This document shows positions 5,747 through 56,860 of a stretch of DNA of 64,000 nt, piece after piece. The stretch is from contig CAWGNJ010000002.1 in the NCBI GenBank assembly GCA_963823915.1, positions 79,192 to 143,191 of the forward strand, in the 5' to 3' direction. Each line of letters starts with the position of its first letter. The stretch's first letter is position 1. Below the pieces are notes generated by a model. That model saw only the letters and a program-made list of their open reading frames with translations, was not told where the DNA came from and searched no databases. The stretch comes from an uncultured Actinomycetota bacterium. Lineage in GTDB: Bacteria > Actinomycetota > Acidimicrobiia > Spongiisociales > UBA4744. The position numbers were made by a program, and so were the translations under genes.

Positions 5747-5781
5747 CTGACTGACGGCTGATGACTGACGACTGACGACTC
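5747..5781. repeat. 7-bp tandem-repeat block, 5 units (ctgactg acggctg atgactg acgactg acgactc)
   Basis: Read directly. Intergenic, after ORF 5483-5701. Confidence 0.9.
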
Positions 5782-5874: not shown

Positions 5875-6498
5875 ATGCGCAAAGCCATCGCAGCCATTGC
5901 GACTGCGGCGATCGTTCTCGGCGGATTCTCCGTCGCCCTGGTCGTCCAGTCGCCGGACGTGGCCTCCGCTCAGGAGGTCGAGACGGAGGACACCCGCACA
6001 ACCGTTCCAGAAAGCGTCGAAGACATCCTGGCCGATCTGGTCGAGGACGGCGTGATCACCGAGGGGCAATCCACCCAGATCTCCGAAGCCCTGCGGCAAC
6101 GAGTCGGGCCTCTTCGGGAACACCGCGGCGGGTTCGCTCGTGGAGCCCAACTGGAGACGATCGCAGGGGTGATCGACATCGAGGTTGAAGACCTCGCCGC
6201 AGCTCTTCGAGACGGACAGACGATTGCCGAGGTAGCCGAGGCCAACGGATCTTCGGCCCAGGCCGTGATCGACACCCTCGTCGCAGAGATGAACACCAAT
6301 CTCGATCAAGCGATTGAGGACGGAAAGCTGACCACCGAGAAAGCTGACGAGATCAGGACCGACGCACCTGAGCGGATCCGGTCGATGGTCAACGGAGAGT
6401 TCGAAGGCCGCAAGGGTTTCGACGGACATCGGCGCATGGGCCCCGGACCGGGACTCAGTTTCGATGACGCACCTAACGCCGCGGAGACCAGCGCCTAG
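5875..6498 (+). CDS. secreted helical-repeat protein with (I/L)(T/S)xxQ motifs (paralog 1)
   Basis: Signal peptide ending ASA-QE, AGGAG 7 nt before the ATG, and motifs VITEGQSTQI and KLTTEKADEI. Clear paralog of 7235-8287 (shared AQAVIDTLVAE / TQAVIDALVAE, ..MVNGE). Confidence 0.7.
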   Translation: MRKAIAAIATAAIVLGGFSVALVVQSPDVASAQEVETEDTRTTVPESVEDILADLVEDGVITEGQSTQISEALRQRVGPLREHRGGFARGAQLETIAGVIDIEVEDLAAALRDGQTIAEVAEANGSSAQAVIDTLVAEMNTNLDQAIEDGKLTTEKADEIRTDAPERIRSMVNGEFEGRKGFDGHRRMGPGPGLSFDDAPNAAETSA

Positions 6499-6517: not shown

Positions 6518-6551
6518 CCCTTCCCCCTCCCGCCGGCGGGAGGGGGAAGGG
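6518..6551 (+). terminator. 17-bp perfect palindrome after CDS 5875-6498 (also a G/C-tract hairpin family member)
   Basis: cccttccccctcccgcc|ggcgggagggggaaggg. No U-tract. Confidence 0.6.
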
Positions 6552-6634
6552 GGAGGGTGGGAAGATAGTTGTCAGTAGTGAATCATCGCTTGTCAGTTCC
6601 GCCTTCCCGGCGTTGCCGCCTTCGGCAGCTCCGC

Positions 6635-7234: not shown

Positions 7235-8287
7235 ATGCGCAAAGCGATGACCGCCCTGGCAGTTGTTGCCCTGGTGGCCGGAGTGGCCCTGGTAGCCGTC
7301 TCCTTGAGCCAGTCACCGTCCGCGCTTGCTCAGGAAACTGAACGAGAAGTCTTCTTCGAGCCGCTCGACGACGTACTCAACGATCTGGTCGACGACCAGG
7401 TGATAACCGAAGACCAGCGCGAGAAGATCGCTACTGCCTTTGAGGAACGGATCGTCCGATTCGGTAAGGAACATCGCGAAACGCCCCACCTGGAAACCGT
7501 TGCCGACACGCTCGACATGGCTGTTGACGAACTCGTTCAGCAGATGCGAGACGGGGCAACCATTGCCGACATCGCCGGAGACCAGACCCAGGCAGTGATC
7601 GACGCCCTGGTGGCGGAGCAGACCACCCGCCTCGAAGAAGCGGTCTCCCAAGAGCGCATTAGCGAGGAGCAGGCCGACGAGATCCGGTCCGCCATGGTCA
7701 AAAAGGTCGAAGCGATGGTCAACGGTGAGCAGTGGATGACGACCCATCCCTTCGACATCGACCGATTCCACGGTCCACGGGGCCATGGCTTCTTTGGTGG
7801 ACCACGCGGTTTCGATTTCTTCGACAAGATGCCCAAGTTCGGCCGGTTTGGGTTCGGAGGCGGCTTCGGTCTCGATCCGATCGCTGAGGCGCTCGGGTTG
7901 GAAACTGATGAACTCATCGACCGCCTTTCCGACGGATCATCACTGGCCGACATCGCTGAGGAACTGGGTGTCGAAATCGAGGAGATCGTCAATGCAGCGC
8001 TGGCCGACCTCGACGAGAAGCTGCAAGACCTGATCGCCGACGAACGGTTGACCCAAGAACATGCCGACGGAATCCGCGCCGGTCTGGCGGAAGCCATCGA
8101 ATCGATGATCAACGGCGAGATGCCGGGTTTCGACGGATTTCACTTCGAGTTCAAATTCGACGGTGAAGCCCCCCACTTCGGGGATTTCCCGTTCCACAAG
8201 TTCTTTGGGGACCCCGATGGGGATTTCCCGTTCCACAAGTTCTTTGGGGACCCCGATGATGTCGACGGGACCGGCACCGCGGCCTAA
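7235..8287 (+). CDS. secreted helical-repeat protein with (I/L)(T/S)xxQ motifs (paralog 2, duplicated module, F/G-rich linker)
   Basis: Signal peptide ending ALA-QE, GGAGG before the ATG. Two copies of the module (VITEDQREKI, RISEEQADEI, RLTQEHADGI). Linker FHGPRGHGFFGGPRGFDFF..FGRFGFGGGFG. C-terminal GDFPFHKFFGDPD x2. Confidence 0.75.
   Translation: MRKAMTALAVVALVAGVALVAVSLSQSPSALAQETEREVFFEPLDDVLNDLVDDQVITEDQREKIATAFEERIVRFGKEHRETPHLETVADTLDMAVDELVQQMRDGATIADIAGDQTQAVIDALVAEQTTRLEEAVSQERISEEQADEIRSAMVKKVEAMVNGEQWMTTHPFDIDRFHGPRGHGFFGGPRGFDFFDKMPKFGRFGFGGGFGLDPIAEALGLETDELIDRLSDGSSLADIAEELGVEIEEIVNAALADLDEKLQDLIADERLTQEHADGIRAGLAEAIESMINGEMPGFDGFHFEFKFDGEAPHFGDFPFHKFFGDPDGDFPFHKFFGDPDDVDGTGTAA
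8180..8257 (+). repeat. perfect 39-bp tandem duplication inside CDS 7235-8287
   Basis: ggggatttcccgttccacaagttctttggggaccccgat x2, encoding GDFPFHKFFGDPD x2. Confidence 0.95.
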
Positions 8288-8295
8288 GCGGTTGT

Positions 8296-8456
8296 GAGTT
8301 CGAAGTTCGAAGCAGGTAGTTGCTTCTTTGCGGCTCGCGACTTCTCACCTGAGACCTGAAACTTGAAACCTGGAACCTGCAGGCTTGATGCTTGATCCCT
8401 CTGTTCTCGTAGCTCGCAGCTCGTAGCTCGTGACCTGCAACCCGAAACCCGTCGAG
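8296..8456. repeat. mosaic of 7-bp repeat blocks, 23 heptads
   Basis: gagttcg aagttcg / tcacctg agacctg aaacttg aaacctg gaacctg / caggctt gatgctt / cgtagct cgcagct cgtagct cgtgacc / tgcaacc cgaaacc. Confidence 0.9.
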
Positions 8457-8481
8457 CCCTTTCTTCTGCTACCAATAGACC

Positions 8482-8949
8482 ATGCAGTATTGGCTGATGA
8501 AATCTGAACCCGGCGACTATTCGATCGATGACTTGCAGCGAGACGGCACCGAGCACTGGGACGGCATTCGCAACTACCAGGCCCGCAACCTGATGCGGGA
8601 TCAAATGGAGATCGGTGATCGTGTGCTGTTCTATCACTCCAACGCCAAGCCGCCCGGCGTGATCGGAATCGCGGAGATCGCCAGTGGTCCTTACCCGGAC
8701 TACTCACAATTCGATCCCAGCGAGAAGTACCACGACCCCAAATCGGACCCGGACAATCCCCGGTGGATCATGGTGGATGTGAAGTTCGTGGAGAAGCTGC
8801 CCAGGTTGGTCTCGCTCCCTGAACTACGGGAATACCAGGAACTGGCTGACATGGTGCTGCTCAATCGGTCCCGATTGTCGGTTCAGCCGGTGACAAAAGG
8901 CCAGTTCGAGTTCATCGTGGATCGGGCGCAGGAACCAGCTCCGGAGTAG
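8482..8949 (+). CDS. EVE domain protein
   Basis: MQYWLMKSEPGDYSIDDL..HWDGIRNYQARNLMRD..GDRVLFYHSN is characteristic of the EVE/PUA-like fold. Confidence 0.85.
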   Translation: MQYWLMKSEPGDYSIDDLQRDGTEHWDGIRNYQARNLMRDQMEIGDRVLFYHSNAKPPGVIGIAEIASGPYPDYSQFDPSEKYHDPKSDPDNPRWIMVDVKFVEKLPRLVSLPELREYQELADMVLLNRSRLSVQPVTKGQFEFIVDRAQEPAPE

Positions 8950-9323: not shown

Positions 9324-9779
9324 ATGTTCAGCTGGCAGTACCTGCTGATGGCGTTCTTCGCCTGCTTGGGAATCGTGCAGTTGGCAGCGGCCCGGTCGGG
9401 AAGACGTCACCTCTGGTTGCTGGGCAATCGCCGGTGGACGGCCTTGGCAGGCGTCGTCCTGCTCATCGCCGGTGTGGTGCTCTTCTACCTGATGCCGCTC
9501 TTCGTGACCGGACCGTGGGGACCGCCCGACCCGATCGATGGCACGGCCACCCGAGCCCGGGCATCCCTCGACACGCTTCCCGAAGCCCGCAACCTCAACG
9601 ACACCGACGGTGGCCTATCGGGTCATTGGCAAGCCTTGTGGTTTGCGATCGCTTGGATATCGGCAGTGTTCTTTGCCAGGGCCGTGGGTCGTTGGCGGCC
9701 TCCACTCCAAGCGCAAGAGACAGCGGATAGTCAAGACGAGCGAGTCCTGATCGGTGTGACGTCGGGAGACCGCCGATGA
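9324..9779 (+). CDS. hypothetical membrane protein
   Basis: In-frame ATG 9324 inside ORF 9222-9779. Four predicted TM helices. Stop overlaps the next start (ATGA). Confidence 0.5.
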   Translation: MFSWQYLLMAFFACLGIVQLAAARSGRRHLWLLGNRRWTALAGVVLLIAGVVLFYLMPLFVTGPWGPPDPIDGTATRARASLDTLPEARNLNDTDGGLSGHWQALWFAIAWISAVFFARAVGRWRPPLQAQETADSQDERVLIGVTSGDRR

Positions 9780-10360
9780 TCTTCCTAGACGACACGGTGT
9801 TCCGTTGGCTCAACGAACTGGCCGGCCGGTCGGAGGTCATCGACGGGTTCGTCCGCTTCGCCATCGGCGACTATTTGATCCCGTTCGTCGCCACCCTGGC
9901 CATCGCCTGGTTGTGGTTTGCCGGGCGAGGAGATCGGGAGACCGGTCTTTTTCAGCATGCCGCGCTCCACGCATTGGTGGCCCTCGGCATCTGTCAGCTG
10001 GTGGTGGCCCTTATCAACATCGCCGTCGGGCGTCCCCGTCCTTTTGAGCAGCTTCCCGATGTGATCGTGTTGTTCTACGAGCCCATCAACTCGTCTTTTC
10101 CTGCCCACCCGGTGGCCACCGTCGTGGCACTGGGCCTGGTGCTCTGGACGGTCAAACCCCGGGCGGGAGGGTTGATCCTCCTGCTCGGGCTCCTGCTTGG
10201 GGTCGGGCGAATCATCGCCGGATTGTGGTTCCCCACCGACGTCCTCGGAGGCATCGCGGTCGGCGGTTTGTCGGCGCTGACGGGAGCGTGGACGCTCGGC
10301 CCGCTCCGCCGCGCCGAAGAGTTCATCCGAGCGAAAACCGCGCAGCTGGGGGTGGGCTAG
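9776..10360 (+). CDS. PAP2-family phosphatase-like membrane protein (divergent motifs)
   Basis: GRPRPF, SFPAHP and GRIIAGLWFPTDVLGG sit at PAP2 motif positions. The usual His of the third motif is absent. Confidence 0.65.
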   Translation: MIFLDDTVFRWLNELAGRSEVIDGFVRFAIGDYLIPFVATLAIAWLWFAGRGDRETGLFQHAALHALVALGICQLVVALINIAVGRPRPFEQLPDVIVLFYEPINSSFPAHPVATVVALGLVLWTVKPRAGGLILLLGLLLGVGRIIAGLWFPTDVLGGIAVGGLSALTGAWTLGPLRRAEEFIRAKTAQLGVG

Positions 10361-10370
10361 AAGCAACGGC

Positions 10371-10454
10371 GGGAAGTGGGAAGTCCGGACCCCGGTGACC
10401 CCTCCGGCATCAGGAGTTCGGACTCCAAACTTCGAACTCTGAACCTCGAACTCT
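10371..10454. repeat. mosaic of 7-bp repeat blocks, 12 heptads
   Basis: gggaagt gggaagt ccggacc ccggtga .. ggagttc ggactcc aaacttc gaactct gaacctc gaactct. Lies between convergent stops 10360 and 10456. Confidence 0.85.
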
Positions 10455-10455
10455 T

Positions 10456-11919
10456 CTACCCCTCGCCCAGCACAACGTCGACCGTCTCCACTGCGCCATC
10501 CCGATCGACGCTCAACTGCACGGTGTTGCCCACATGCGAACGACGCAGGAGGACGATCAGGTCCTGCATGATCTCGACCTCTTCGCCCTCGAAAGAGACG
10601 ATGAGATCACCGGCCAGCAGACCGGCTGCAGCCGCGCCGCCCACCGGATCGACTGATCCGATTTCAACCCCGGCAGGAACCTGGGCGCCATCGGCGGCCG
10701 TGTCGAAGCTCGTTCCGCCGGTGATCCCCAGGAATGCAGTTCCGGCCCGACCGTTCGCAATCAACTCCTCAACAACTCGTTCGACGATCTCGACGGGCGT
10801 GGCAAAACCGATCCCTTCTACGCCTATCTCCGATACCCCGACGGCGGTCGTGATCCCGATCAATCGACCCGTCTCGTCGACCAGCGCTCCTCCACTAGAT
10901 CCTTGAGTAATCGGAGCGTCAGTCTGCAACATTCCATAGAGGGGGTCGCTGCCGCCGGTTTGCACCAACCGGTCGAAGGCGGAAAGCACGCCCACGGTTA
11001 GCGACGGGCCTCCGTCAAGTCCAAGCGGGTTCCCAACCGCCACCGCGGGGTCTCCCACGGACAGGTCGTCGGACGATCCCAATTCGATCGGGACTAGGTT
11101 GTCGGCATCGATCTTGAGGACCGCTAGATCAGTAACCGGATCGGTACCTACCAGGGAGGCTTCGTAGACCCGCCCATCGGCGAACACCACCCGGTAGGCC
11201 GGACTGCCGGAAGCGACATGATCGTTGGTGATGATGTGGCCTTCCGTGTCAAACACGACACCTGATCCGGATCCACGCCGGCTGAAGCCGGTGGGGCCTT
11301 CCTGTCCGACCTGCACGCTGACGGTGGAAGGGATCACGACTTCGCCCACCAGAACGGCATCGACATTGGCTTCGCGCAGTTGAAGCGTTGCTGATCCGGT
11401 CGACGGAGGGGTAGCGGTCTCAGCGACCTGGTCGACCACTGTCGTGGTGGTAGTGGTAACCGGATCTTCGGAGAAGTCGAGGGCACCGACCCCGGCCACT
11501 GCGGCCAGCGCCACCACGGCCCCCAAGAATCCAGACACCATGGGGATCAAAACCCGGCCCCGCGGCCGGTCGGCCGGTTTTGAAGTGTCGAGGGATCCTG
11601 TCACTCCCCCCACAATGGGGGCGGGGGGCGAAACGGGTCCGGCCGGCCACTCCACCGTCGGCGGAAGGGCCTGCCGTCCAGGAAGATCGAAGCGGGCTGG
11701 GTCAAGGCGATCCCGAGGGGGCGAATCGCTCCATGCGGGACGCATCGGCTCAAAGCGTCCGGAATCGGGTTCTTCGACCGTCGACTCATTGTCCCGGACG
11801 TTCGTATCCCGTCCGGCGGCATCGTGGTCGGCGTCGGGAGGCGTGGTCGCCTCTCCGTGAATGAGCGATGACGGCTGGTCATCGTCAGACCGTGGATCCT
11901 GGTTGGGGTACATATTCAT
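10456..11919 (-). CDS. HtrA/PepD-like S1C serine protease with PDZ domain
   Basis: HIITNDHV, DLAVLKI and TQGSSGGALVDE catalytic text followed by a PDZ domain. Pro-rich N-terminus plus one TM. Start set at ATG 11919 (MNMYPNQ, GGAG upstream). Confidence 0.85.
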   Translation of the reverse strand: MNMYPNQDPRSDDDQPSSLIHGEATTPPDADHDAAGRDTNVRDNESTVEEPDSGRFEPMRPAWSDSPPRDRLDPARFDLPGRQALPPTVEWPAGPVSPPAPIVGGVTGSLDTSKPADRPRGRVLIPMVSGFLGAVVALAAVAGVGALDFSEDPVTTTTTTVVDQVAETATPPSTGSATLQLREANVDAVLVGEVVIPSTVSVQVGQEGPTGFSRRGSGSGVVFDTEGHIITNDHVASGSPAYRVVFADGRVYEASLVGTDPVTDLAVLKIDADNLVPIELGSSDDLSVGDPAVAVGNPLGLDGGPSLTVGVLSAFDRLVQTGGSDPLYGMLQTDAPITQGSSGGALVDETGRLIGITTAVGVSEIGVEGIGFATPVEIVERVVEELIANGRAGTAFLGITGGTSFDTAADGAQVPAGVEIGSVDPVGGAAAAGLLAGDLIVSFEGEEVEIMQDLIVLLRRSHVGNTVQLSVDRDGAVETVDVVLGEG

Positions 11920-12013
11920 CTCCGTCTGCAACGTCTTCTCGTAGAAATTATTCGAATCCGATGTGAGTACCGGATGAACCGAAGCTAAGAAGCTGGTGAG
12001 AACTCTCTGTCGA

Positions 12014-13363
12014 TCACACCGTGGCGGGGATCTGGAATCCCACCCGGGCGCCACCGCCGGGTGTCTCGTCGGCCCATACCCGACCGCCGTGGAGGTCGAT
12101 CACCTGTTTGACGATCGCCAGGCCGAGGCCCGATCCAGGCATCGACCGGGCCGTCGCGGAACGGTAGAAACGATCGAACACGTATGAACGATCTTCCAGG
12201 CCAATGCCGGGGCCGTGATCGATCACTTCCACTGATCCACCCCGAACCGAAACCTCGATGGGGACATCGGGTGGACTCCACTTATGGGCGTTGTCGACCA
12301 GGTTGATTACCGCCCGCTCGAGCATCCCCGGCCGGCCTTCCACGGTTCCCCCGTCCCCTGTCACCACTACGGTCCGGCCCGTTCGCCGGCGGGCCCGCTC
12401 GGCCACCTGTTCGACAAGTTCGGCCAGATCGACTTGGGACACTGGCTCCTCGGCGATCCGGGCGTCGGTGGCCAGTTCAACCAGTTCCGACACCAACTCG
12501 GTCAGCTCCTCCAGTTCAAAGGTCACGTCGGCCAGCAGTTCCTGTTTCTCGGCACCTTCCATGTCGTCCGACTTGGCCAGTACCTCGATGTTCGTACGAA
12601 GCGAGGTGAGCGGGGTGCGCAACTCATGGCTGGCGTCGGCTACAAGTTGCTGCTGCTGTTGGCGGGAAGCACCCAGCGCTTTCAGCATGGTGTTGAAGCT
12701 GGAAGCCAGCCGCCCGATCTCATCGTTCCGATCGACGGCGATGGGAGCATCGAAATCCTGGGTAGTGGCCACATGTTCGGCAGTGGCGGTCAACTCACCG
12801 ACCGGCTTCAGCGCCCGGCCGGCGACCAACCAACCCATGAGGGCGGCGAGGAGAACACCCAAGCCGCCAATGCCAAACAGACGCAATCGGAGTCCATTGA
12901 CGATGGCATCGGTTTCGCTCATGTCGCGAGCGATCTGGATCGCGTAGCCGTCTCCCCAGGGAGCGGTGATCATCCGGTAGTGGGTCTCCTCCACGTACAC
13001 ATTGCGCGGTTCGACGTAGAGGCGCTCACCGACGACCTGTAGGTCGGTTTCCGAGATCGGCAGTGCCGGGCCGCCGCGCAAGAACGCGACCACCTCTCCC
13101 TCTTCGTTGAATGCCTGGAAGGCTGAGTCCGGTCCGAAGACGTCAAAGATCCCGAATCCACCCATCCCGAACTCACGCGAGGCAGGGAAGCGGCCTCCGC
13201 CCTCGGCGAGTGCTGTGAGAGCGGAAGCTCGCTGAACCAGGAACTGATCGATTTCGCCTCTTGCTTCGCGAGTGGCCGAGACGTAAGCCGCCCCGGCCAC
13301 CGCCGCTACCGCCATGGCCACCGCCAGGGCTACAAAAAGAGAGAGCCGGGCGCGCAGGGTCAC
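12014..13363 (-). CDS. sensor histidine kinase (MprB-like)
   Basis: Two TM helices, HAMP, H-box [35 protein letters not shown]. 4-nt overlap with the regulator upstream. Confidence 0.9.
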
Positions 13364-33852: not shown

Positions 33853-33870
33853 ACGGGCTGCGCCCGTTCA
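33850..33870 (+). terminator. hairpin at the hspR stop codon
   Basis: tgaacgggc-tgc-gcccgttca. The TGA stop is part of the stem. Confidence 0.6.
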
Positions 33871-33877
33871 CAGTTCC

Positions 33878-33940
33878 GGGTTTCAGGATCCAGGTCACAA
33901 GTCGGCCGATAGGTGGAACCTGAAACTTGCGACCTGAAAC
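33878..33940. repeat. 7-bp repeat block (aggatcc aggtcac aagtcgg .. ctgaaac ttgcgac ctgaaac), weaker
   Basis: Read directly. Just downstream of the hspR terminator hairpin. Confidence 0.6.
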
Positions 33941-33970
33941 GACCGTCCTTGATCGTTCTACCATCGGTTC

Positions 33971-34824: not shown

Positions 34825-36252
34825 CTATCCCTTGACGACTCCGAGGGGGCGTAGGCGAGCCACCTTGTTGGCCAGACCGGCCCGAGCGCAGGCGTCGACG
34901 ACCTCGTCGACATCCTTGTAGGCGTAGGGCGCTTCCTCCGAAAGCAGTTTGACCGAACCGGGCCGCACGGAGATGCCACCTGCCTCCAGGGCCCGCCGCA
35001 CTTCGTACCCGGTTTCCTCCTGCTTGGCCTTCTTGCGGCTCATCAAGCGGCCCGCGCCGTGGGCCGCGGTCGCAAAGGCCGGGTTGCCTTCGACACCGAC
35101 CAACACCCAGGATGCCGTTCCCATGCTGCCCGGAATCAGTACCGGTTGCCCGACTGGTCGCAGGTCTGCCGGAAGGTCGAGATGACCCGGACCAAAGGCA
35201 CGAGTGGCACCCTTGCGGTGCACACAAAGGCGCCGGTCTTGACCGTCGACTTCGTGGGTCTCGATCTTGGCCAGGTTGTGGGCGACGTCGTAGACGAGTT
35301 GCATTCCTGTCTGTTCGGGTGACATCCCAAAGGCCGCGGCGAATGCTTGACGAGCTTCGTGGGCCAGGACGTGGCGGTTGGCCCAGGCGAAGTTGGCCGC
35401 GGCGGCCATGGCTCCCAGGTAGCGCTGCCCCTCTGCCGACTCAACCGGAACCGAGGCAAGTTGTCTATCCGGCACTTCGATCCCGTACTTCTGCATGGCG
35501 GCCCCCATCAGCTTCAACTCGTCGGTGCAAGTCTGGTGACCAAGACCACGACTCCCGCAGTGAATCATCACGCACACCATCCCCTCAGCGAGACCGAAGG
35601 CGCGGGCGGATTCTTCGTCGTGAATGGAATCCACCACCTGGACCTCGAGAAAGTGGTTGCCGGCGCCCAAAGACCCCAACTGCCCGGCGCCTCTTTGCAG
35701 GGCTCGTGCCCCAATGTGGCCGGGTTGCGCTCCCGCAGAGGTCCCGTTCTCCTCGCACCGATCGAGATCCGACTCCCAGCCGTAACCGGCCGCCAGCACT
35801 GCCCGCGCACCGTCGCTGAGCACCTGACGCAAGAGACCCGCGTCGGCTATCGAACCCTTGCCCAGTCCGCGCGGGATGCGACCGTCGAGTTCGTTCATCA
35901 CCTCAGTGCGCCGGTTGTTGAAATCTCCCTCGTCAAAGCTGGATGCCAGCAACCGGACTCCGCAGCAGATATCGAATCCGACCCCGCCGGGTGAGACCAC
36001 TCCACCGGCATCAACGTCGGTAGCCGCTACCCCACCAATCGGGAATCCGTATCCCCAGTGGATGTCGGGCATGGCCATCGAAGCTTCGATGATCCCCGGC
36101 AGGTGGGCGACGTTTTCAACTTGCATCACCGCCCGGTCCTCTTCGGCCTTCAGCAGAAGCGGCTCGGAAGCGAATATGCGTCCGGGGACTCGCATGCCCT
36201 TGTGACGGGGGATCTCCCAGACGCATTCGGCAATCCGGTGCAGGTTCATCAA
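34825..36252 (-). CDS. rtcB: RNA-splicing ligase RtcB
   Basis: Intact 475 aa. [42 protein letters not shown]. Confidence 0.9.
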
Positions 36253-36274
36253 TCCAACTGTACGTCAGAGGTTG

Positions 36275-36414
36275 GCTTCAGGTTTCAGGTTTCAGGTTTC
36301 AGGTTGCAGGTTTCAAGTTGCACGCACGAGCAGCAAGCAACAAGAACCAGCAGGTTTCGGGTCTCAGGTTTCAGGTTTCAGGCAGGAGCACGAGGAACGA
36401 GGAACGAGATACTG
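36275..36414. repeat. mosaic of 7-bp repeat blocks, 20 heptads (GTTTCAG-type dominant)
   Basis: gcttcag gtttcag x3 gttgcag gtttcaa gttgcac / gcacgag cagcaag caacaag / aggtttc gggtctc aggtttc aggtttc / agcacga ggaacga ggaacga. Confidence 0.95.
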
Positions 36415-36425: not shown

Positions 36426-36455
36426 AAGAAGGCCGGCCCACGGGCCGGCCTTCTT
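36426..36455 (-). terminator. 13-bp stem hairpin downstream of mscL
   Basis: aagaaggccggcc-cacg-ggccggccttctt. Confidence 0.65.
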
Positions 36456-36474: not shown

Positions 36475-36852
36475 CTAGCGCTTCAGGGAGTCGCGGATCT
36501 CGGTGAGGAGCACAATGTCCTCGGCCGGGGCCGGAGCCTCTTCCTCACCAGAAGCCTGACGAGCCTTGATAACCTCATAGGGCTTCACAACAAAGAAGAA
36601 CACCGCAAAGGCAATCATCAGGAATACCACAATGGCCTGGATGAACGCCCCGAACTTGATCTGCGAATCGTTGATCTCCAGGATCATCACCTGATTGAAG
36701 TTCGGCTCGCCGAAGATGATGCCCACGATCGGCATGAGAACCTCAGTAACTAATGCACCGATCACAGCCACAAATGCCAGAGCCATCACCAAACCGACGG
36801 CGATCTCGATCAGATTGCCCTTGAGGGCAAAGTCCTTAAATTCCTTGAGCAC
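36475..36852 (-). CDS. mscL: large-conductance mechanosensitive channel MscL
   Basis: LKEFKDFALKGNLIEIAVGLVMALAF. GTG 36852 with GGGAAGGGAGAG upstream is preferred over the longer ORF. Confidence 0.9.
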   Translation of the reverse strand: MLKEFKDFALKGNLIEIAVGLVMALAFVAVIGALVTEVLMPIVGIIFGEPNFNQVMILEINDSQIKFGAFIQAIVVFLMIAFAVFFFVVKPYEVIKARQASGEEEAPAPAEDIVLLTEIRDSLKR

Positions 36853-36975
36853 AAGCTCTCCCTTCCCATACCCGGATTTTCCAGGGACCAAAGTAACAGG
36901 TGTGGAAAGCCCACGATTCGAGCCCCTTCACCGGGGTTTTGACCCCACCGGTTGGCAGAAGTTCCGCGCCGACTC

Positions 36976-40702: not shown

Positions 40703-40779
40703 AGGACTTAGATTTATTGAAACAATACGACTACGAAATAGGGTGTATGCAACAAGGCAACCCTACAGGAGAGTGAAGC

Positions 40780-43365
40780 ATGGCCGTCGATTTTGACAAA
40801 TTTACCCACCGCTCTCAGCAAGCGACCTTGCGCGCCCAGGAACTGGCCAAGGCTCACAACCACCAGTACGTGGAGCCCGCTCATCTGCTGTTGGGATTGT
40901 TGGATCAAGCGGACGGAATCGTCTATCCCCTCCTCAGCAAGCTCGACATTGCCGTGCCCACCTTGAGGGCCGCAAACCGAAGAGCAACTCGAGCGAATCC
41001 CCAAGGTGTATGGGGGTGAGGTTGCCATATCCCAGAACCTCCTCAACCTCTTCGAGGTGGCCGAAGTCGCGCCGGACGGAAATGCGCGACGATTATCTCT
41101 CCGTCGAGCACTTACTCCTTGCCCTGGCGGGCTCGGAAACACCTGCCGGAGAGGTACTACGAGAGCTCGGCGCCGACCGTCAGGCGATCCTCGAGGCATT
41201 GACGGAGATTCGGGGGAACCCAGCGAGTGACCAGCCAGGACCCCGAGGCCACTCTCAACGCCCTCGAACAGTACGGACGGGATCTGACCGAAATGGCCCG
41301 CCAGCAAAAGCTGGATCCGGTTATCGGTCGGGACGATGAGATCAGACGGGTCATCCAGGTGCTTTCTCGACGGACCAAGAACAACCCTGTTCTGATCGGC
41401 GAGCCGGGAGTCGGCAAAACCGCCATCGTCGAAGGACTTGCCCAGAGAATCGCCAATGGCGACATTCCCGAGGGTCTCAAGAGCAAACGCATCGTCGCCC
41501 TCGACCTGAGCGCCATGGTGGCCGGAGCCAAATACCGGGGAGAATTCGAAGAGCGCCTCAAGGCAGTGCTTGGTGAAATCAAGGCGTCGGAAGGCCAGAT
41601 CATCACCTTCCTCGATGAGATGCACACCATCGTCGGCGCCGGTGCCGCCGAAGGTGCGATGGACGCTTCCAACATGCTCAAGCCGATGTTGGCCCGCGGC
41701 GAATTGCGCATGATCGGCGCGACCACTCTCGACGAGTATCGAAAGCATGTCGAGAAGGACGCAGCCTTAGAGCGGCGCTTCCAGCCTGTGTACGTCGACG
41801 CCCCGAGCGTCGAGGACTCAATCGGCATCCTGCGCGGACTGAAGGAACGGTATGAGGTCCACCACGGAGTCCGTATCACCGACTCGGCCCTCGTCGCCGC
41901 AGCCGTGCTTTCGGACCGGTATATCACGGGCCGGTTCTTGCCGGACAAAGCGATAGACCTGATCGACGAGTCGGCCTCCCGGCTTCGCATTGAGATCGAT
42001 TCCATGCCGGAGGAGATCGACGAGCTGGAGCGGCGCGTCAAGCAATTGGAGATCGAGCGGGCCGCTCTGCAGAAAGAAACTGATGACGCATCCCAGCGAA
42101 CGGCTGGCGGCCCTCGAGCAGGAACTGGCGGACGTGCAGTGAGGAGTCCGAAGGGCTTCAGGCCCATTGGAACCTCGAGAAGGAAGAGATCGACCGGATC
42201 CGCAGCGTCAAGCAACAGACCGAGGAGGCCCGAGCCGAGGCCGAACGGGCGGAGCGCCACGGCGACCTGGAGCGGGCGGCCGAGATCAGGTACGGAACCC
42301 TCCCCAACCTGGAGCGGAGCCTCCTCGAATGGCAGCAGGACCTGGAGAAGCTTCAGGTGCAACAAGAAGATGCTGAAGGAAGAGGTCGACGAAGAGGACG
42401 TCGCCGAGGTGGTCAGCCGTTGGACAGGAGTCCCGGTGGCACGGTTGATGGAAGGCGAAGTCGAAAAGCTGATCCGGCTCGAAGACCACTTGCACCGGCG
42501 GGTCGATCGGCCAGAACGTGGCGGTTACGGCCGTGGCCAACGCCATCCGTCGCAGCCGCGCTGGCTTGTCGGACCCGCAACGACCCATCGGATCGTTTAT
42601 CTTCCTGGGACCCACCGGGGTCGGAAAGACAGAGCTGGCCCGGGCTCTGGCATGGTTCATGTTCGACGATGAGCGGGCCATGGTCCGCATCGACATGTCC
42701 GAGTACATGGAGAAACACAGCGTCTCCCGGCTCATCGGTGCTCCTCCCGGCTACGTCGGCTACGACGAGGGCGGGCAGCTCACCGAAGCTATCCGCCGGC
42801 GTCCCTACTCGGTGATCCTGCTGGATGAGATCGAGAAGGCCCATCCGACGTGTTCAACGTGTCTGCTGCAGGTCATGGACGATGGCCGCCTGACCGACGG
42901 TCAGGGACGCAGCGTCGATTTTTCCAACACCGTCCTGATCATGACCTCCAATCTGGGGTCGCAACATATCGAAGCCGACGAGCAGCGACGAAGCGGTCCG
43001 CGACGCAGGTGATGGCGGTGGTGCAATCACATTTCCGTCCCGAGTTCTTGAACCGGGTCGACGAAGTGATTGTGTTCCACCGATTGACCCGGGACGACCT
43101 GCGGGCCATCGTCGACATCCAACTCGAACATGTCAGGGGCCGTCTGGCCACCCGCCGGATCAGCCTCACCTTGACCGACGCCGCCAAGGACTGGCTGGCC
43201 GCAGAGGGATACGACCCGGCCTACGGTGCTCGTCCCCTCAAACGACTCATCCAGACTGAGATCGCCGACAAACTGGCGCTGCAGATCCTGGACGGAACCT
43301 TCCGCGAGGACGACGCGGTGGTGGCGGATGTTGGTGACGACGGGTTGGTGTTTCAAGCCGCATAG
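40780..43365 (+). CDS. clpB: chaperone disaggregase ClpB, heavily frame-interrupted
   Basis: Clp_N text, NBD1 ([18 protein letters not shown]), coiled coil, NBD2 ([29 protein letters not shown]) and C-terminus YGARPLKR, spread over at least 8 frame pieces. Confidence 0.95.
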
Positions 43366-43373
43366 CGGCTCGA

Positions 43374-43408
43374 GTCATCAGTCGTCAGTCATCAGTCATC
43401 AGTTGTCG
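43374..43408. repeat. 7-bp tandem-repeat block, 5 units (gtcatca gtcgtca gtcatca gtcatca gttgtcg)
   Basis: Reverse complement of the 5747 motif (TGAYGAC). Directly after the clpB stop. Confidence 0.9.
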
Positions 43409-43410
43409 GT

Positions 43411-43466
43411 TTCCCCCTCCGACCTCGCTCCGCTCGGCCACCTCCGCCGGCCGGCGCCGGTGGAGG
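43411..43466. repeat. C-tract/G-tract hairpin element (shares the CCCCCTC..TCGCTCCGCTCGG motif)
   Basis: CCCCCTCcgaccTCGCTCCGCTCGG, followed by the hairpin cctccgccgg..ccggtggagg. Confidence 0.6.
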
Positions 43467-43596
43467 ACATCCAAAGCCCCACTGATGCCTGAAAGGGCGG
43501 CCGCCAGGCCGACCGACGGACAACTGATAACTGCGACCGCAGGTCGCAATCCCAATTCCCGACGTACCGACGGTTCCATCTGCGATAATCAATGTC

Positions 43597-44043
43597 ATGG
43601 ATAACGAGATTTGGCGCTGGTTGTGGACAGGTCTGGCCGTCGTGCTCGCCGTGGGCGAGATCTTCACCGCAGGATTCTTCCTGCTGCCATTTGCCGTCGG
43701 CGGAGCTATTGCCGCCATCCTGGCTTGGGCAGGTGCGGCGGTCGCTTGGCAGTGGATTGTGTTCTTCGTCGTATCGGTGGGAACGCTCTTGTACCTGCAG
43801 CGATTCATCCGCAAGCAAGACATTGCGGACACCAAGAGCATCGGAGCCAACCGCTACCTGAGGATGCAGGCGATTGTGCTCGAGCAGGTCGATCCGACCT
43901 CCGGTACCGGCCGGGTCAGGGTCGAGTCGGAGGAGTGGAGAGCCACCAGCGACGGCGACATCATCGAGCCCGGAACGCCGGTAACCATCACCGAGGTACG
44001 CGGTACTCGCTTGGTGGTCCGCGCCTCAGCACAAGAGTCCTGA
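43597..44043 (+). CDS. NfeD-family membrane protein
   Basis: Two to three TM helices followed by an OB-like C-terminus (GTGRVRVESEEWRATSDGDIIEPGTPVTITEVRGTRLVV). Confidence 0.8.
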   Translation: MDNEIWRWLWTGLAVVLAVGEIFTAGFFLLPFAVGGAIAAILAWAGAAVAWQWIVFFVVSVGTLLYLQRFIRKQDIADTKSIGANRYLRMQAIVLEQVDPTSGTGRVRVESEEWRATSDGDIIEPGTPVTITEVRGTRLVVRASAQES

Positions 44044-45057: not shown

Positions 45058-45074
45058 GAAGGTTCAGAGTGGGC

Positions 45075-45095
45075 AGTTTGAAGTTTGAAGTTGTT
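45075..45095. repeat. 7-bp repeat block (agtttga agtttga agttgtt)
   Basis: Left arm of the 45072-45162 palindromic arrangement. Confidence 0.8.
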
Positions 45096-45117
45096 GATCC
45101 CCTCTCCGGAGGGGATC
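45096..45117. terminator. hairpin between convergent SPFH and M20 genes
   Basis: gatcccctc-tccg-gaggggatc. A second hairpin, gcgaagc-aag-gcttcgc, lies at 45161-45177. Confidence 0.6.
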
Positions 45118-45130
45118 ACTCTTTGCTCCA

Positions 45131-45160
45131 CTTCCGACTTCCAACTTCCAACTTCCAACT
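45131..45160. repeat. 7-bp repeat block (cttccga cttccaa x3)
   Basis: Right arm. Its reverse complement (ttggaag) is one base different from the left-arm unit (tttgaag). Confidence 0.85.
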
Positions 45161-45176
45161 GCGAAGCAAGGCTTCG

Positions 45177-46321: not shown

Positions 46322-46399
46322 GATTTCCTCGTTCTCATAGTTCGGCCGTTAGGCCGGTTCACGGTACCAGGCAGTCGGGGGCCCGACTGCGTGGGCCGC

Positions 46400-46427
46400 G
46401 TATCTCGTACTTCGTATCTCGTGCTCC
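46400..46427. repeat. 7-bp repeat block (gtatctc gtacttc gtatctc gtgctcc)
   Basis: Read directly. Upstream of the M20 gene start. Confidence 0.75.
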
Positions 46428-51549: not shown

Positions 51550-51577
51550 GTCCGCGGTTCGCAGTCCGCAGTCCGAA
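51550..51577. repeat. 7-bp repeat block (gtccgcg gttcgca gtccgca gtccgaa)
   Basis: Lies between the dxs stop (51615) and the terminator hairpin at 51521-51543. Confidence 0.75.
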
Positions 51578-51614: not shown

Positions 51615-53490
51615 CTACGAGTTTTCCACAATGGCCGCGACCCGCTTGGCGATCGAGTCCGGGTCGAGTTCGACGTCTGTCTGGACATCGGCGGCAGAGC
51701 CGGAAGGCAAAAAACGATCAGGAAGACCGAGCAGCGACACATGGCCGGCCAGGCCATGGCGCGACAACTCTTCGAGCACGGCCGCCCCAAACCCACCGGC
51801 GACCACGTTGTCTTCCAGCGTGACAACTCGTGGATAACCCTCCGCCCATTCCGCCAGGCGGGCATCGAGCGGCTTGACCCAACGGGCATTGACGATTCCA
51901 CACGAGATGCCCTGTTGGGCAAGCATTCCGGCAGCCTTCACCGCGGGTTCGACCATGCTCCCGAGAGCCAGCAAAAGCACATCCTCGCCCTCCTGTACCA
52001 GATCGGCTACCCCCACCTCGAGGGGAGCCGCCGGCAAGTTCGGAACTGAGGCGGCGGCGCCTTTGGGGAAGCGGACGGCGATCGGGCCGGCGAAGTCCCA
52101 GGCGGTTTCGAGCATCCCGCACAACTCGTCGGCGTCGGCCGGGGCGCCGATCGTCAGATTGGGGATCATCCTCAGATAGGAGAGATCGAAGGCACCGTGG
52201 TGGGAAGCACCATCCGGCCCGGTGATGCCGGCCCGGTCGATCATGAACACCACCGGCAGGTCATGCATCGCGACATCGGTAACGATCTGATCGAAAGCCC
52301 GCTGCAAGAAACTCGAATAGATGGCTACCACGGGACGCATGCCGGCCATCGCCAGCCCGGCTCCCAGGGTGACCGCGTGCTGCTCGGCGATTCCGGTGTC
52401 GATCACCCGGTCGGGAAACTCCCGGGCCATCGCCGCCAAGACCGGTTGGAGAGACCATGGCGGCGCTGATCGCGATCAGATCCTCCCGGTCCCGAGCCGC
52501 ATGGACCAGCGCCTGACCGGCCACATTGGTGAGCTTCATCTCCGATTTGGCCGGCCGGCCCGACTCGATGTCGAAAGCACCGACGCCGTGCAGTTTGTCC
52601 TCTTCGTTGTTGATAGCCGGTTCATATCCGGAGCCCTTTTCGGTGACGGCGTGCACCACCGAGGGTTCGTCGAAAGACTTGGCGTGTTCCAAGGTCTCTT
52701 CGATCAGGTCGATGTTGTGACCGTCGATAACGCCTGAGTACTTCAGTCCCAGGGCATCGAACACGGTGCCGGGTTCGATCAGTTGTTTGACCGATTCTTT
52801 CAGCCGGTGAGCCAGCTCGTCGGCGCCCTCCCCGATGGCAGGGATGCTGCGCAGGATCCTTCCAATGGTCTTTTTGGTCCATTCATAGCGCGGGTCGAAT
52901 CGCAGGTGCCCGAGGGCTGCGATCCCGCCCACCGTCGGTCCGTAGGAACGCCCGTTGTCGTTGACCACCACGATCAATTTGGGTGGCTGCAAGACGGCGA
53001 TGTGGTTGAGGGCCTCGTAGGCCATGCCGCCGGTCAGGGCGCCGTCCCCGATGACGGCCACCGTGTAGCTGTCGTCTCCGGATCGTTGTTTGGCCAGAGC
53101 CATTCCCAGGGCATAGGAAAGAGAGGTCGAAGCGTGGCTGTTCTCGACAAAATCATGCTCGCTCTCGGCCCGATTCGGGTACCCGGTCAAACCCTCATAC
53201 TGCCGCAGGGTCTCAAACTCATCCTGGCGACCGGTGACCAGTTTGTGGACGTAGGCCTGATGTCCAACATCCCAGATGATGCGATCGGTTGGACTGTCGA
53301 ACACCCGGTGCAGAGCCAGAGTCAATTCAACGATTCCCAGATTGGGTGAGAGGTGGCCGCCCGTCCTCGAGATCACGTCGACCATAAAGGACCGGATTTC
53401 GTCGGTCAGTTGCGTCAGTTGGTCGTTATCGAGTTTGCGCAAATCGGCCGGGCCGTTCACACGAGCGAGCACACTGTCGGTTGCGGTCAC
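51615..53490 (-). CDS. dxs: 1-deoxy-D-xylulose-5-phosphate synthase, one frame break near 52440
   Basis: GGHLSPNLGIVELT, IWDVGHQAY, VIGDGALTGGMA. C-terminal transketolase text in 51615-52439. Confidence 0.95.
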
Positions 53491-56773: not shown

Positions 56774-56847
56774 TTTCTAGTTTCTAGTTTCTGGTTGCTC
56801 GTTCCGACCTGGAACCTGAAACCTGAAACCGGGAACCTGCAACTGCG
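56771..56847. repeat. mosaic of 7-bp repeat blocks, 11 heptads
   Basis: tagtttc x3 tggttgc tcgttcc / gacctgg aacctga aacctga aaccggg aacctgc aactgcg. The first TAG is the stop codon of 56588-56773. Confidence 0.9.
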
Positions 56848-56860
56848 AGCGCTAGCTCGC
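56845..56860. terminator. short hairpin at the convergent junction
   Basis: gcgagc-gcta-gctcgc. Overlaps the hemD-like stop codon. Confidence 0.4.

Follow-up and report, generated by a model that had tools for sequence, protein, structure and literature searches.

Heptanucleotide tandem repeats in the intergenic DNA of an uncultured soil actinobacterium of the class Acidimicrobiia

Tandem repeats of heptamers have been known in cyanobacteria since 1990, and those of the heterocystous species (Calothrix PCC 7601, Nostoc/Anabaena), named short tandemly repeated repetitive (STRR) sequences, have the units CCCCAGT, TTGGTCA and CAACAGT. To our knowledge, neither a generating mechanism nor a function has been demonstrated for the 7-nt preference of bacterial intergenic tandem repeats since these first heptamers and the genome survey of 2007. 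As related in later papers, that survey (Mrazek 2007, via PMC4679880 and PMC4692102) found heptanucleotides to be the commonest long simple sequence repeats (LSSRs) of repeat-rich bacterial genomes, three Actinobacteria included, located them in intergenic DNA and proposed polymerase slippage as their cause. PMC4692102 refers to the heptamers of Calothrix and itself describes G-quadruplex-forming heptamer repeats, GGGAATC/GGGGAYT, in Xanthomonas and Nostoc (Rehm 2015), and TAACTGA direct repeats have been reported from marine Beggiatoaceae, Cyanobacteria and Bacteroidetes (MacGregor 2015, PMC4679880). We found no paper tying heptamer repeats to Acidimicrobiia or Pirellulales, and heptamers go unmentioned in a survey from 2025 that covers short tandem repeats across life.

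The window analyzed here is a 64-kb stretch from the chromosome of an uncultured soil actinobacterium of the class Acidimicrobiia. It holds 19 arrays of period 7 by the calls of Tandem Repeats Finder (TRF). A sliding test that accepts 14-base windows with 12 or more matches picks out 142 of them for period 7, compared with a mean of 0.05 and a maximum of 3 in dinucleotide shuffles of the non-coding DNA; periods 5, 6, 8, 10 and 11 give 0–2 windows each, and those of periods 9 and 12 are confined to coding DNA. None of the 142 windows lies inside a called gene, the gene map being derived from a codon-bias model built here together with Pfam checks. The intergenic heptad repeats of the window are therefore confirmed as real, and the point of the initial annotation that period-7 blocks are restricted to non-coding DNA holds. 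Its statement that no described class of elements has this organization does not stand, heptanucleotide LSSRs having already been described (PMC4679880, PMC4692102). Indeed, the arrays consist of head-to-tail units of fixed length whose total exceeds random expectation, and their unit, not a multiple of three, is concentrated in non-coding DNA, so that they match the LSSR class and are related to the cyanobacterial STRRs.

With the LSSRs as portrayed in the papers that cite the survey (Mrazek, Guo & Shah 2007, via PMC4679880, PMC4692102 and PMC11868660), the arrays share over-represented tandem 7-nt units, an intergenic position and a scattered phylogenetic distribution; they differ in their uncultured Acidimicrobiia host, their shortness (2–6 units) and the many motifs that adjoin one another. 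The STRRs likewise are tandem heptamers at many intergenic loci with several motif families per genome, but the cyanobacterial arrays are often much longer and belong to another phylum with another GC content, and as none of the three STRR units occurs among the 19 arrays of this Acidimicrobiia host, membership is rejected. The TAACTGA system (PMC4679880) resembles the window in its intergenic direct repeats of 2–6 copies per set, patchy among close relatives, and related units are present: GACTGAY, CAACTGATAACTG near 43540, and AACTGAC in L004 and L059. However, one motif dominates in the Beggiatoaceae genome and similar heptamers are rare there, whereas at least 12 distinct heptamers occur in the 64 kb studied here. 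Moreover, the TAACTGA repeats lie a few nucleotides upstream of start codons, whereas the present arrays lie 3′ of stop codons and upstream of leaderless promoters, a conserved −10 element separating array from downstream start codon. Since the window holds no TAACTGA array, its nearest unit, GACTGAY, has 1–2 mismatches and many unrelated units coexist with it, membership in this system is rejected as well. The heptamers of Xanthomonas and Nostoc (PMC4692102) also occupy the same gene spacers in related species with much variation in length and sequence, and some form inverted pairs in convergent spacers; the run of 3–4 G per unit that characterizes them is absent from the present arrays, which are AT-richer spacer DNA of 49% GC with neither G-rich units nor G-runs and are incapable of forming G-quadruplexes. 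G-runs are present in an unrelated hairpin at 6520–6565. Phase-variable contingency loci (PMC11868660) are comparable in being short tandem repeats at or close to promoters, with a copy number that slippage could alter, but their units are mostly of 1–5 nt and belong to surface or restriction-modification genes, either in the promoter spacer or in the 5′ coding region, whereas the arrays described here lie outside the −35/−10 spacer, flank housekeeping genes (rtcB, clpB, mscL, phoU-like) and show no copy change between strains 0.1% apart. A CRISPR array (repeats of ~23–50 nt with unique spacers of similar length) is ruled out by the contiguous 7-nt units; the initial view that the blocks are neither CRISPR nor MIRU-type is correct.

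We give next to no credence to the idea that the arrays are an assembly or polishing artefact or due to chance. Indel errors are indeed suggested in the window by clpB, whose reading is split over five frame segments, and by overlaps among other ORFs, but contigs assembled from other samples, L001 (JGI) and L002 (Logan), are 99.9–100% identical and gap-free across 8288–8481 and 10361–10455. The focal spacer, present without change in these independently obtained short-read contigs, is therefore no artefact of assembly. A further short-read contig (L085) is identical over the array 59493–59530 as far as its end, orthologous arrays are present in other MAGs, and the shuffles given above argue against chance.

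The focal spacer, 8296–8456, has a lag-7 identity of 0.597, lags 14 and 21 both reaching 0.47 and all other lags 0.16–0.31; shuffles of this stretch give 0.249 on average at lag 7 (sd 0.034, maximum 0.377, n = 5000). The signal is thus real, but only 10 of the 22 neighbouring heptad pairs share at least five of seven bases and 8313–8345 is a hairpin without repeat, and therefore the 23 consecutive heptads of the initial annotation are partly an imposed reading frame. Three arrays are called by TRF: AGTTCGA ×2.3 (8297–8312, 100% matches), starting 9 nt past the stop codon of the gene 7235–8287; ACCTGAA, equivalent to CCTGAAA, ×4.7 (8347–8379), a motif common to four other arrays; and CTCGTAG ×3.7 (8406–8431). 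The non-repeat hairpin found by RNAfold on the forward strand at 8309–8330 (GAAGCA-ggtagt-TGCTTC followed by TTTG) is the putative terminator of the gene 7235–8287, although an E. coli-type terminator scan makes no call there. GCTTGAT ×2.4 (8382–8398) can be read from the sequence, and 8432–8456 holds degenerate heptads (GACCTGC AACCCGA AACCCGT) with a neighbour identity of 4–5 of 7. The identity of 0.47 at lags 14 and 21, across differing motifs, suggests that the focal spacer descends from one array. At 8468–8484 a promoter-like motif on the forward strand, GCTACCAATAGACC plus ATG, marks the start of an EVE-domain gene; it is the sole part of the focal spacer conserved in relatives, reading GTGCTACCAATGCACCCATG in L086, L087 and L089. 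A cupin gene takes the place of the focal spacer in L086 and L087, is decaying in L089 and is replaced by the spacer in the window.

Among the further loci listed initially, those at 5747, 36275, 43374, 45075, 45131, 56771 and 59493 are clear in TRF. The first holds GACTGAC/GACTGAT ×4.6 (5749–5780). Upstream of rtcB lie TTCAGGT ×6.1 (36277–36319), which ends ~20 nt upstream of the −10 element, and CAGGTTT ×4.6 (36351–36382), both CCTGAAA on the gene strand, followed by ACGAGGA ×2.7 (36390–36408; TCCTCGT on the gene strand), a motif also found at the orthologous site of L004. AGTCATC ×4.4 (43373–43403), the reverse complement of GACTGAT, starts 8 nt past the clpB stop. In one convergent spacer, AGTTTGA ×2.6 (45075–45092) forms the left arm beside a central terminator hairpin (45096–45117) and ACTTCCA ×4.4 (45130–45160), an inverted near-complement, the right arm; another is filled by TAGTTTC ×3.7 (56771–56796), whose first unit holds the TAG stop of the small ORF 56588–56773, and its inverted partner ACCTGAA ×5.3 (56807–56843). 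GGTTTCA ×5.4 (59493–59530) lies 3′ of the phoU-like gene and a small hairpin, next to TTTCTCG ×3.7 (59534–59559, 100% matches). The loci at 46400 and 51550 are weak, with CGTATCT ×3.4 (46399–46422) and GTCCGCA ×3.7 (51550–51575) scoring 34 and 38 in TRF. The array announced at 10371 exists, but TRF places it better at 10417–10454, where a period 7/14 array fills the convergent PAP2-HtrA spacer (flanking genes by Pfam). The locus given as 33878 falls below both detectors and actually consists of two inverted partial CCTGAAA arms, CCGGGTTTCAGGATCC ... GGAACCTGAAACTTG (33876–33929), in a hairpin 3′ of the terminator of a MerR gene.

The arrays sit 3′ of stop codons, as had been noted for most blocks; they adjoin terminator hairpins and precede conserved promoters of the leaderless type. 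The mscL-rtcB spacer, on the reverse strand, illustrates this arrangement: the arrays are downstream of the mscL terminator hairpin AAGAAGGCCGGCC-CGTG-GGCCGGCCTTCTT (36426–36455), conserved in L004, L005, L016, L083 and L084, and upstream of GTACAGT (TANNNT −10 element) plus 7 nt plus the rtcB ATG (36247–36263), a putative leaderless-type promoter whose counterparts TACAGT, TACGCT, TACGGT or TACCCT are conserved 5–8 nt before the rtcB start codon in 12 relatives. Scanning two spacers for promoters and terminators of the E. coli type found nothing, and the terminators and promoters that we infer here therefore rest on conservation in relatives. The role of spacing modules proposed initially would fit the position of arrays between terminator and promoter. 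Divergent spacers carry no array in the window (0 of ~11) and are also depleted among metagenome array loci (3 of 40 versus a background of 19.5%, p = 0.03, on crude gene maps); this avoidance and the frequent inverted pairs around hairpins could reflect a function at 3′ ends. Other ideas on position were rejected. A stop codon in all three frames is found on the sense strand in 5 spacers and on the antisense strand in 2, a by-eye count that is not significant; a Rho rut site would call for C-rich sense strands, and a hand count of units shows no consistent sense-strand C excess, AGTTTGA, AGTTGGA and GGTTTCA being G-rich; and there is no replication-strand bias, CCTGAAA occurring on both strands with a GC skew that is uniform across the window.

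Relatives, compared over ~20 kb each, differ sharply in array content. Density is ~0.3 per kb in the window and in L004, the closest syntenic relative, and 0–0.05 in L003, L005, L086, L087 and L089; relatives with 83–90% identical flanking proteins have almost no arrays. At the sites occupied in the window, L004 carries arrays too, though of altered motif. Downstream of clpB, the array has 5 units in the window (AGTCATC, AGTCGTC, AGTTGTC), is shorter by exactly 7 nt in L004 and is AGCTATC ×8 in L016. This 7-nt indel is the one clean change of a whole unit relative to L004 and comes from the clpB-nfeD spacer, the only one aligned well enough to measure indel lengths, the other spacers being too diverged. 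The mscL-rtcB spacer is 42–65 nt long in L003, L005 and L016, and heptads add 85 nt in L004 and 160 nt in the window between the mscL terminator and the rtcB −10 element. To judge from this comparison, the arrays are dispensable: L003, L005 and L016 keep terminator and −10 element without heptads. Mapped against conserved terminator hairpins and leaderless-type promoters, the arrays thus appear to occupy dispensable spacer.

We consider it probable, if by no means certain, that the arrays are tolerated spacer DNA built by slippage in 7-nt steps, a process specific to the lineage and biased in its motifs. Units of 7 nt would be duplicated or lost head-to-tail by local slipped-strand mispairing with a preferred 7-nt step, and point mutation followed by re-amplification of variant units would yield a mosaic of short blocks; variants inside one array differ by single substitutions. 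The process would be active in the lineage of the window and in L004, its nearest relative, and hardly in sister lineages. Its products would persist only where an indel of a length not divisible by three does no harm, namely between stop codon and terminator, on both flanks of bidirectional terminators, and between terminator and leaderless-type promoter, and the net effect would be AT-richer, unstructured spacer DNA and longer intergenic regions. Favoured units, chiefly CCTGAAA, may slip or spread more readily, or be mildly selected. The periodicity, location, turnover, lineage restriction and motif bias of the arrays are demonstrated here, as is the unstructured state of the direct ones; we infer slippage as the generating step, and likewise that the arrays have no sequence-specific function. 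Of the three roles suggested initially (binding arrays, slippage-prone VNTRs, spacing modules), slippage is the best supported, by the 7-nt indel and the motif turnover; the fast behaviour of a VNTR was not seen. Indeed, copy number does not change between strains 0.1% apart, and the sole homologous pair among the metagenome hits, L094 and L119, which come from two samples of one other organism, is identical; the slippage rate is therefore not high. Exact-protein look-ups for strain-level VNTRs returned no record for three proteins, and the metagenome hits included no match to the window.

Several observations run counter to slippage, among them the avoidance of divergent spacers and the inverted pairs around hairpins noted above. 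Motif use is far from random and motifs recur across taxa, neither of which is predicted by purely local neutral slippage; moreover, slippage alone explains neither the choice of period 7 over 5, 6 or 8 nor the array-poor close relatives. CCTGAAA forms five arrays in the window, giving 10 identical array pairs compared with 0.15 expected (maximum 3 in 2000 trials). As proposed initially, motifs recur between loci in both orientations: CCTGAAA/TTTCAGG at several loci, and the unit noted as TGAYGAC as GACTGAY at 5749, inverted at 43373. A dispersed element of the REP/BIME or MITE type is rejected, since the flanks of the five CCTGAAA arrays are unrelated, sharing only a short TCGTTCC junction at two loci, and their lengths and neighbours differ. 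CCTGAAA is found in unrelated taxa of other phyla and, together with NACTGAY, in genomes of 30–69% GC; in IMG/VR, (CCTGAAA)3 occurs on 32 contigs, compared with 4–18 (mean 11.5) for four permutations of the same composition. Some cross-taxon matches (L164, L159) are probably eukaryotic telomere-like DNA.

This motif choice, shared between phyla, and the patchy distribution of arrays among close relatives would be expected if the arrays were cis-acting binding sites for a lineage-restricted, trans-acting nucleic-acid-binding protein reading CCUGAAA/GACUGAY on RNA or DNA. A role of this kind has been proposed for TAACTGA in Beggiatoaceae (PMC4679880) and for heptamers upstream of recF and recO in Nostoc, and besides such proposals reporter effects have been published (PMC4679880; bioRxiv 10.1101/2022.06.06.494920). 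The depletion of divergent spacers is in line with such a candidate, as is a weak preference of CCTGAAA for the sense strand in co-directional spacers (19 versus 10); being unstructured and AT-richer, the arrays would also be accessible. However, this preference lacks significance (p = 0.14) and both orientations occur, the 12 or more heptamers in 64 kb cannot all be read by one binder, orthologous sites retain an array and not its sequence, and relatives manage without arrays. Furthermore, the largest arrays lie between terminator hairpin and leaderless −10 element, where they are probably poorly transcribed and outside the downstream mRNA. We therefore regard binding sites as unlikely, though the most plausible alternative to slippage, and the use that might be made of them, in post-transcriptional control, termination or insulation, as equally unlikely.

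Another explanation would be a dedicated, horizontally mobile enzyme that adds or copies heptamers, such as a telomerase-like reverse transcriptase, a primase-polymerase with a slipping primer, or faulty flap processing. The strict period of 7, the same units in genomes of such different GC content and the sharp differences between close relatives speak for it, and the specificity of an enzyme would account for both period and cross-phylum motifs; we hold even this twofold account to be highly improbable. Against it, no candidate gene was found within the ~20 kb available per relative, units of many kinds occur side by side, unique flanking sequence seems to have seeded arrays (convergent spacer, L004 versus window), the telomere-like matches weaken the cross-taxon argument, and in IMG/VR permuted heptamers are themselves found on up to 18 contigs. 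The broader proposition, that the arrays are the footprint of some trans-acting factor spread by horizontal transfer, be it a heptad-binding or heptad-selecting protein or an enzyme adding 7-nt units, is improbable. The specificity of such a factor would account at once for period 7, for CCTGAAA and NACTGAY/TAACTGA in Acidimicrobiia, Planctomycetes, Beggiatoaceae, Cyanobacteria and Bacteroidetes of 30–69% GC, and for the at least six-fold density gap between sister lineages, and the heptad-rich and heptad-poor Acidimicrobiia relatives compared here would then be a natural contrast for finding the factor.

At the level of RNA, the predicted folds of the direct arrays are no more stable than those of shuffled sequence (8346–8460, z = −0.3; 59490–59565, z = +1.5; 43366–43420, z = 0.05). 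Rfam, whose use had been recommended initially, gives no match at gathering scores over the 64-kb window, the one match near the focal spacer at E up to 1 being at chance level, to a viral snoRNA model (E = 0.43), and a structured-RNA identity is rejected for the direct arrays. A tRNA/tmRNA scan of the window found none. Three spacers do form long imperfect hairpins with inverted heptad arrays as arms: 33853–33970 (z = −1.7), 45058–45176 (z = −4.3) and 56774–56851 (z = −2.9). These raise the idea that inverted pairs provide material for long RNA or DNA hairpins, which would extend terminator stems and act as bidirectional terminators or 3′-end stabilizers in the manner of REP sequences. The association of arrays with 3′ ends agrees with it, and similar facing pairs exist in Xanthomonas (PMC4692102) and in a Pirellulales genome (L059), where AATGCAA ×4 faces ACATTTT ×5. 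Nevertheless, most arrays are direct, unstructured and have no inverted partner, each of the well-folding spacers has an ordinary GC-rich terminator hairpin that gives much of the energy, and the arms do not pair perfectly, each heptad at 45075/45130 having one mismatch. It is thus rather improbable that hairpin formation is what the arrays are for. In the same Pirellulales genome, repeats occur within a few nucleotides upstream of start codons, as in the TAACTGA system.

The window extends the described class of heptamer repeats to uncultured Acidimicrobiia and, as a side result, to Pirellulales, and does not solve the cause of period 7. A close phylogenetic contrast, between syntenic relatives that have arrays and others that lack them and between orthologous arrays of differing motif, makes the question testable. 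The arrays also have a practical consequence, as short-read assemblies break at them, which affects MAG contiguity in such lineages; look-ups of the mscL and phoU-like proteins returned short contigs ending at the terminator palindrome or inside an array.

Analysis of the window with Tandem Repeats Finder reveals 19 arrays of period 7, the runner-up periods in the same run being 12 (8 arrays) and 9 (5 arrays). A sliding test, requiring at least 12 of 14 positions to be identical to the base one period further on, yielded 142 period-7 windows over the whole 64 kb, 13 for period 12, 3 for period 9 and 0–2 for periods 5, 6, 8, 10 and 11. All 142 lie outside called genes; every period-9 and period-12 window lies inside genes. 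Dinucleotide-preserving shuffles of the non-coding DNA (n = 200) gave on average 0.05 period-7 windows (maximum 3), which bears out, for this window, the intergenic enrichment expected in the initial annotation. The period-7 arrays are real. They sum to approximately 540 nt, corresponding to 35% of the array-bearing spacers and 4% of all non-coding DNA, with a GC content of 49% vs. 60.5% for the other non-coding DNA. In the stretch 8296–8456, lag-7 identity reaches 0.597 compared with 0.249 ± 0.034 for shuffles, lags 14 and 21 give 0.47 and the remaining lags 0.16–0.31. This stretch had been described as 23 consecutive heptads: the periodicity stands, but the reading frame is partly imposed (at least 5 of 7 bases are shared by 10 of the 22 neighbouring units, and residues 8313–8345 form a hairpin). 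Two of the other loci originally listed are weak or mis-centred, 33878 consisting of two inverted partial arms and 10371 being better set at 10417–10454. Tandem Repeats Finder also scores as period 7 (AGGGGGA) a long, perfect hairpin rich in G/C (CTTCCCTTCCCCCTCCCGCC-GGCGGGAGGGGGAAGGGGGAGGG) at 6520–6565, 3' of the gene 5875–6498; it is of another sequence type than the AT-richer heptads and is probably a terminator.

The possibility of an assembly artefact was answered by short-read contigs from other samples, which confirm the arrays. Two of them (L001, JGI 3300045962, and L002, Logan ERR11523668) match the window without gaps over 3.7–3.8 kb at 99.9–100% identity, spanning the spacers 8288–8481 and 10361–10455; a third, Logan contig L085, carries the same PhoU-domain gene and matches the array 59493–59530 as far as its own end, inside the array. 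Two further Logan contigs, L083 and L084, end at the mscL terminator palindrome. Such arrays and this palindrome break de Bruijn assemblies of the lineage. Array lengths are unchanged between strains 0.1% apart (L001/L002 comparison), and the arrays are stable at this short range. Near the C-terminus of the gene of unknown function 7235–8287, a 39-bp sequence is perfectly duplicated in tandem and in frame (8180–8258; 13 amino acids, GDFPFHKFFGDPD); an independent Illumina contig, L001, has it too, so the duplication is real and recent. Elsewhere, clpB (40765–43365, +) aligns to its orthologue in the Acidimicrobiia relative L005 in five pieces, in frames 1/3/1/2/1, and the overlapping ORFs 51615–52439 (transketolase pyrimidine-binding and C-terminal domains) and 52261–53490 on the minus strand resemble one split gene; both cases suggest either indel errors remaining from the long reads or pseudogenes.

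The initial annotation knew of no described element class with this organization. One exists: as summarized in two later papers (PMC4679880, PMC4692102), a 2007 survey of prokaryotic genomes reported that intergenic heptanucleotide repeats are over-represented, counted three Actinobacteria among the ten most repeat-rich genomes and proposed polymerase slippage, 7 nt being the stretch that contacts the polymerase. The window arrays show the fixed unit length, the excess over random expectation and the non-coding location that define such heptanucleotide long simple sequence repeats (LSSRs). They fall outside the definitions of STRR, TAACTGA and G-quadruplex heptamer repeats, which are tied to particular motifs. 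The heptamers of Calothrix and Nostoc are one specific known system (Calothrix: PMC4692102), and heptamer repeats upstream of Nostoc recF and recO are reported to have modest reporter effects (preprint, bioRxiv 10.1101/2022.06.06.494920). In Beggiatoaceae, Cyanobacteria and Bacteroidetes the repeats are of a single motif, TAACTGA, placed immediately 5' of start codons; they are patchy between relatives, and lateral spread, or a mobile protein binding them, was suggested (PMC4679880). The G-quadruplex repeats GGGAATC/GGGGAYT of Xanthomonas and Nostoc sit in corresponding spacers of related species, vary extensively there and form inverted pairs in convergent spacers (PMC4692102). No paper in the literature searched links heptamer repeats to Acidimicrobiia or Planctomycetes. 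The arrays are a known kind of repeat in a new host lineage.

The surrounding genes are, by Pfam, ordinary chromosomal ones: an EVE-domain gene (8482–8949, +), an htrA-like gene (10456–12054, −), rtcB (34825–36252, −), mscL (36475–36891, −), the clpB C-terminus (ending at 43365, +), nfeD and SPFH genes, and a PhoU-domain gene (58804–59478). The top RtcB matches among GTDB species representatives are Acidimicrobiia MAGs (68–89% identity), and the region 28.9–47 kb is syntenic with the relatives L003, L004, L005 and L016, with L004 closest overall. The spacers that carry arrays are co-directional or convergent, and none of approximately 11 divergent spacers has one; among 76 unrelated metagenome loci, divergent spacers are 3 of 40 array-bearing ones vs. 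a background of 19.5% (p = 0.03), both counts relying on crude ORF-based gene maps.

Comparison with relatives gives insight into what flanks the arrays. In L003, L005 and L016 the mscL–rtcB spacer measures only 42–65 nt and has a TANNNT box (TACAGT) 5–8 nt 5' of the rtcB start, with a GGCCGGCC...GGCCGGCC hairpin in L005 and L016; in some 12 more distant Acidimicrobiia the box is kept as TACGCT, TACGGT, TACCCT and the like, a conservation that indicates a leaderless mRNA. The heptads are inserted exactly between hairpin and box, over 160 nt in the window and 85 nt in L004, with units TCCTCGT and AACCTGA in common. Conserved TANNNT-type boxes are found 5–8 nt 5' of the rtcB (TACAGT, 36247–36263, −) and nfeD (GATAAT, 43582–43599, +) start codons, and a conserved motif GCTACCAAT precedes the EVE-domain start (8468–8484, +); together with the lack of a Shine-Dalgarno sequence, they point to leaderless mRNAs for all three. 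These putative promoters and terminators are assigned from conservation in relatives; scans of two spacers for E. coli-type promoters and terminators gave no match. The spacer 8288–8481 follows the mscL–rtcB pattern, reading stop codon, AGTTCGA x2.3, small hairpin with a TTTG tail, approximately 110 nt of heptads, GCTACCAAT and ATG. In the relatives L086 and L087 this position, flanked by the orthologue of 7235–8287 and the EVE gene, is taken by a terminator hairpin and an oppositely oriented cupin-domain gene (9594–9923 and 9419–9745, respectively); in L089 the cupin gene has decayed to a remnant (approximately 9880–10000). The window lacks the cupin gene and has heptads in its place, and GCTACCAAT-ATG is the only part of the spacer shared with these three relatives. 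In one convergent spacer, inverted array arms (45075–45092 and 45130–45160) lie on either side of a central GC-rich hairpin; in another (56771–56843) arrays occupy the whole gap. An uncalled 61-codon ORF (56588–56773, +), preceded by a strong ribosome-binding site (AGGAGG) and encoding a hydrophobic N-terminus, has its TAG stop within the first unit of a (TAGTTTC)3 array; its product has no exact match in the gene collection.

Directly 3' of the clpB stop the window reads AGTCATC AGTCGTC AGTCATC AGTCATC AGTTGTC. L004 has this array minus one unit (7 nt) and with other substitutions, L016 has AGCTATC x8, and L003 and L005 retain degenerate traces only. In the convergent spacer with inverted arms around a hairpin (45075–45160), L004 keeps flanks and hairpin, with units AGGTTCC/AAGTTTC vs. 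AGTTTGA/ACTTCCA in the window. Together these comparisons suggest that an array stays at its site while unit and copy number turn over. The window and L004 have approximately 0.3 arrays per kb, L016 has 0.09, and L003, L005, L086, L087 and L089 have 0–0.05; the flanking proteins of these last five are 83–90% identical to those of the window.

Motif use is not random. As first noticed in the initial annotation, motifs recur between loci in both orientations: CCTGAAA/TTTCAGG is used by five arrays in four spacers, giving 10 identical array pairs vs. 0.15 expected (maximum 3 in 2000 simulations), and GACTGAY at 5749 returns inverted at 43373. Further related groups are AGTTCGA/AGTTTGA/ACTTCCA and CTCGTAG/TCCTCGT/TTTCTCG. 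The junction TCGTTCC to CCTGAAA, found at two unlinked loci (36351–36408, −; 56799–56830, +) and upstream of rtcB in L004 (9918–9961), hints at composite arrays copied between sites or arising repeatedly. The best-supported mechanism, which we hold to be reasonably probable, is motif-biased 7-nt slippage confined to some lineages, which would generate the arrays, its products being tolerated as spacer DNA around terminators and 5' of leaderless promoters. A factor binding the heptads, the main rival, would fit the bias in motif use, the patchy occurrence of arrays and their linkage to 3' ends, and we regard it as rather unlikely.

Other identities were rejected. Rfam, a search proposed at the outset, gives no match at gathering scores over the window and a single chance-level hit (E = 0.43) near the spacer 8288–8481. 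Structured RNA is rejected for the direct arrays, which are no more stably folded than their shuffles; only the spacers with inverted arms and a GC hairpin are (z = −2.9 and −4.3). Contiguous 7-mer units, on which the earlier exclusion of CRISPR holds, and unrelated flanks rule out CRISPR, REP and MITE elements. The window arrays have neither a consistent excess of C over G on the sense strand nor a replication-strand bias, and the sense-strand preference at metagenome loci is not significant (19 vs. 10, p = 0.14).

Period-7 arrays are found well beyond this lineage. A Pirellulales MAG (L059) carries (AACTGAC)15(AACCGAC)7 abutting the rtcB start codon (9806–9975) and inverted heptad pairs at 2008–2104 and 8050–8147 (AATGCAA x4 facing ACATTTT x5; TTTTNCA facing GNAAAAT), at approximately 12 period-7 windows per kb, five times the density of the window; a Planctomycetia MAG has GGTYTCA units. 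At least 120 metagenome contigs contain (CCTGAAA)3. Among the matches listed, 80 such loci range from 30 to 69% GC, most with further period-7 arrays of other units, and hold 252 period-7 arrays vs. no more than 60 arrays of any one other period. In IMG/VR, perfect arrays of three or more units are present in 107 viral contigs for TAACTGA, 32 for CCTGAAA and 3 for ACGACTG, and four same-composition permutations of CCTGAAA give 4–18; with the metagenome counts, these figures amount to a modest and no more than roughly controlled preference for CCTGAAA across taxa. A few of the listed metagenome loci probably represent telomere-like DNA of eukaryotes. Four metagenome matches (L164, L159, L136 and L167) have very long arrays (e.g. 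AAACCCT x67, AAAACCT x63, CCTGAAA x75 and x39, AAACTTG x39) that resemble telomeres or subtelomeres of eukaryotes and not spacers of bacteria, AAACCCT being the telomere unit of plant type.
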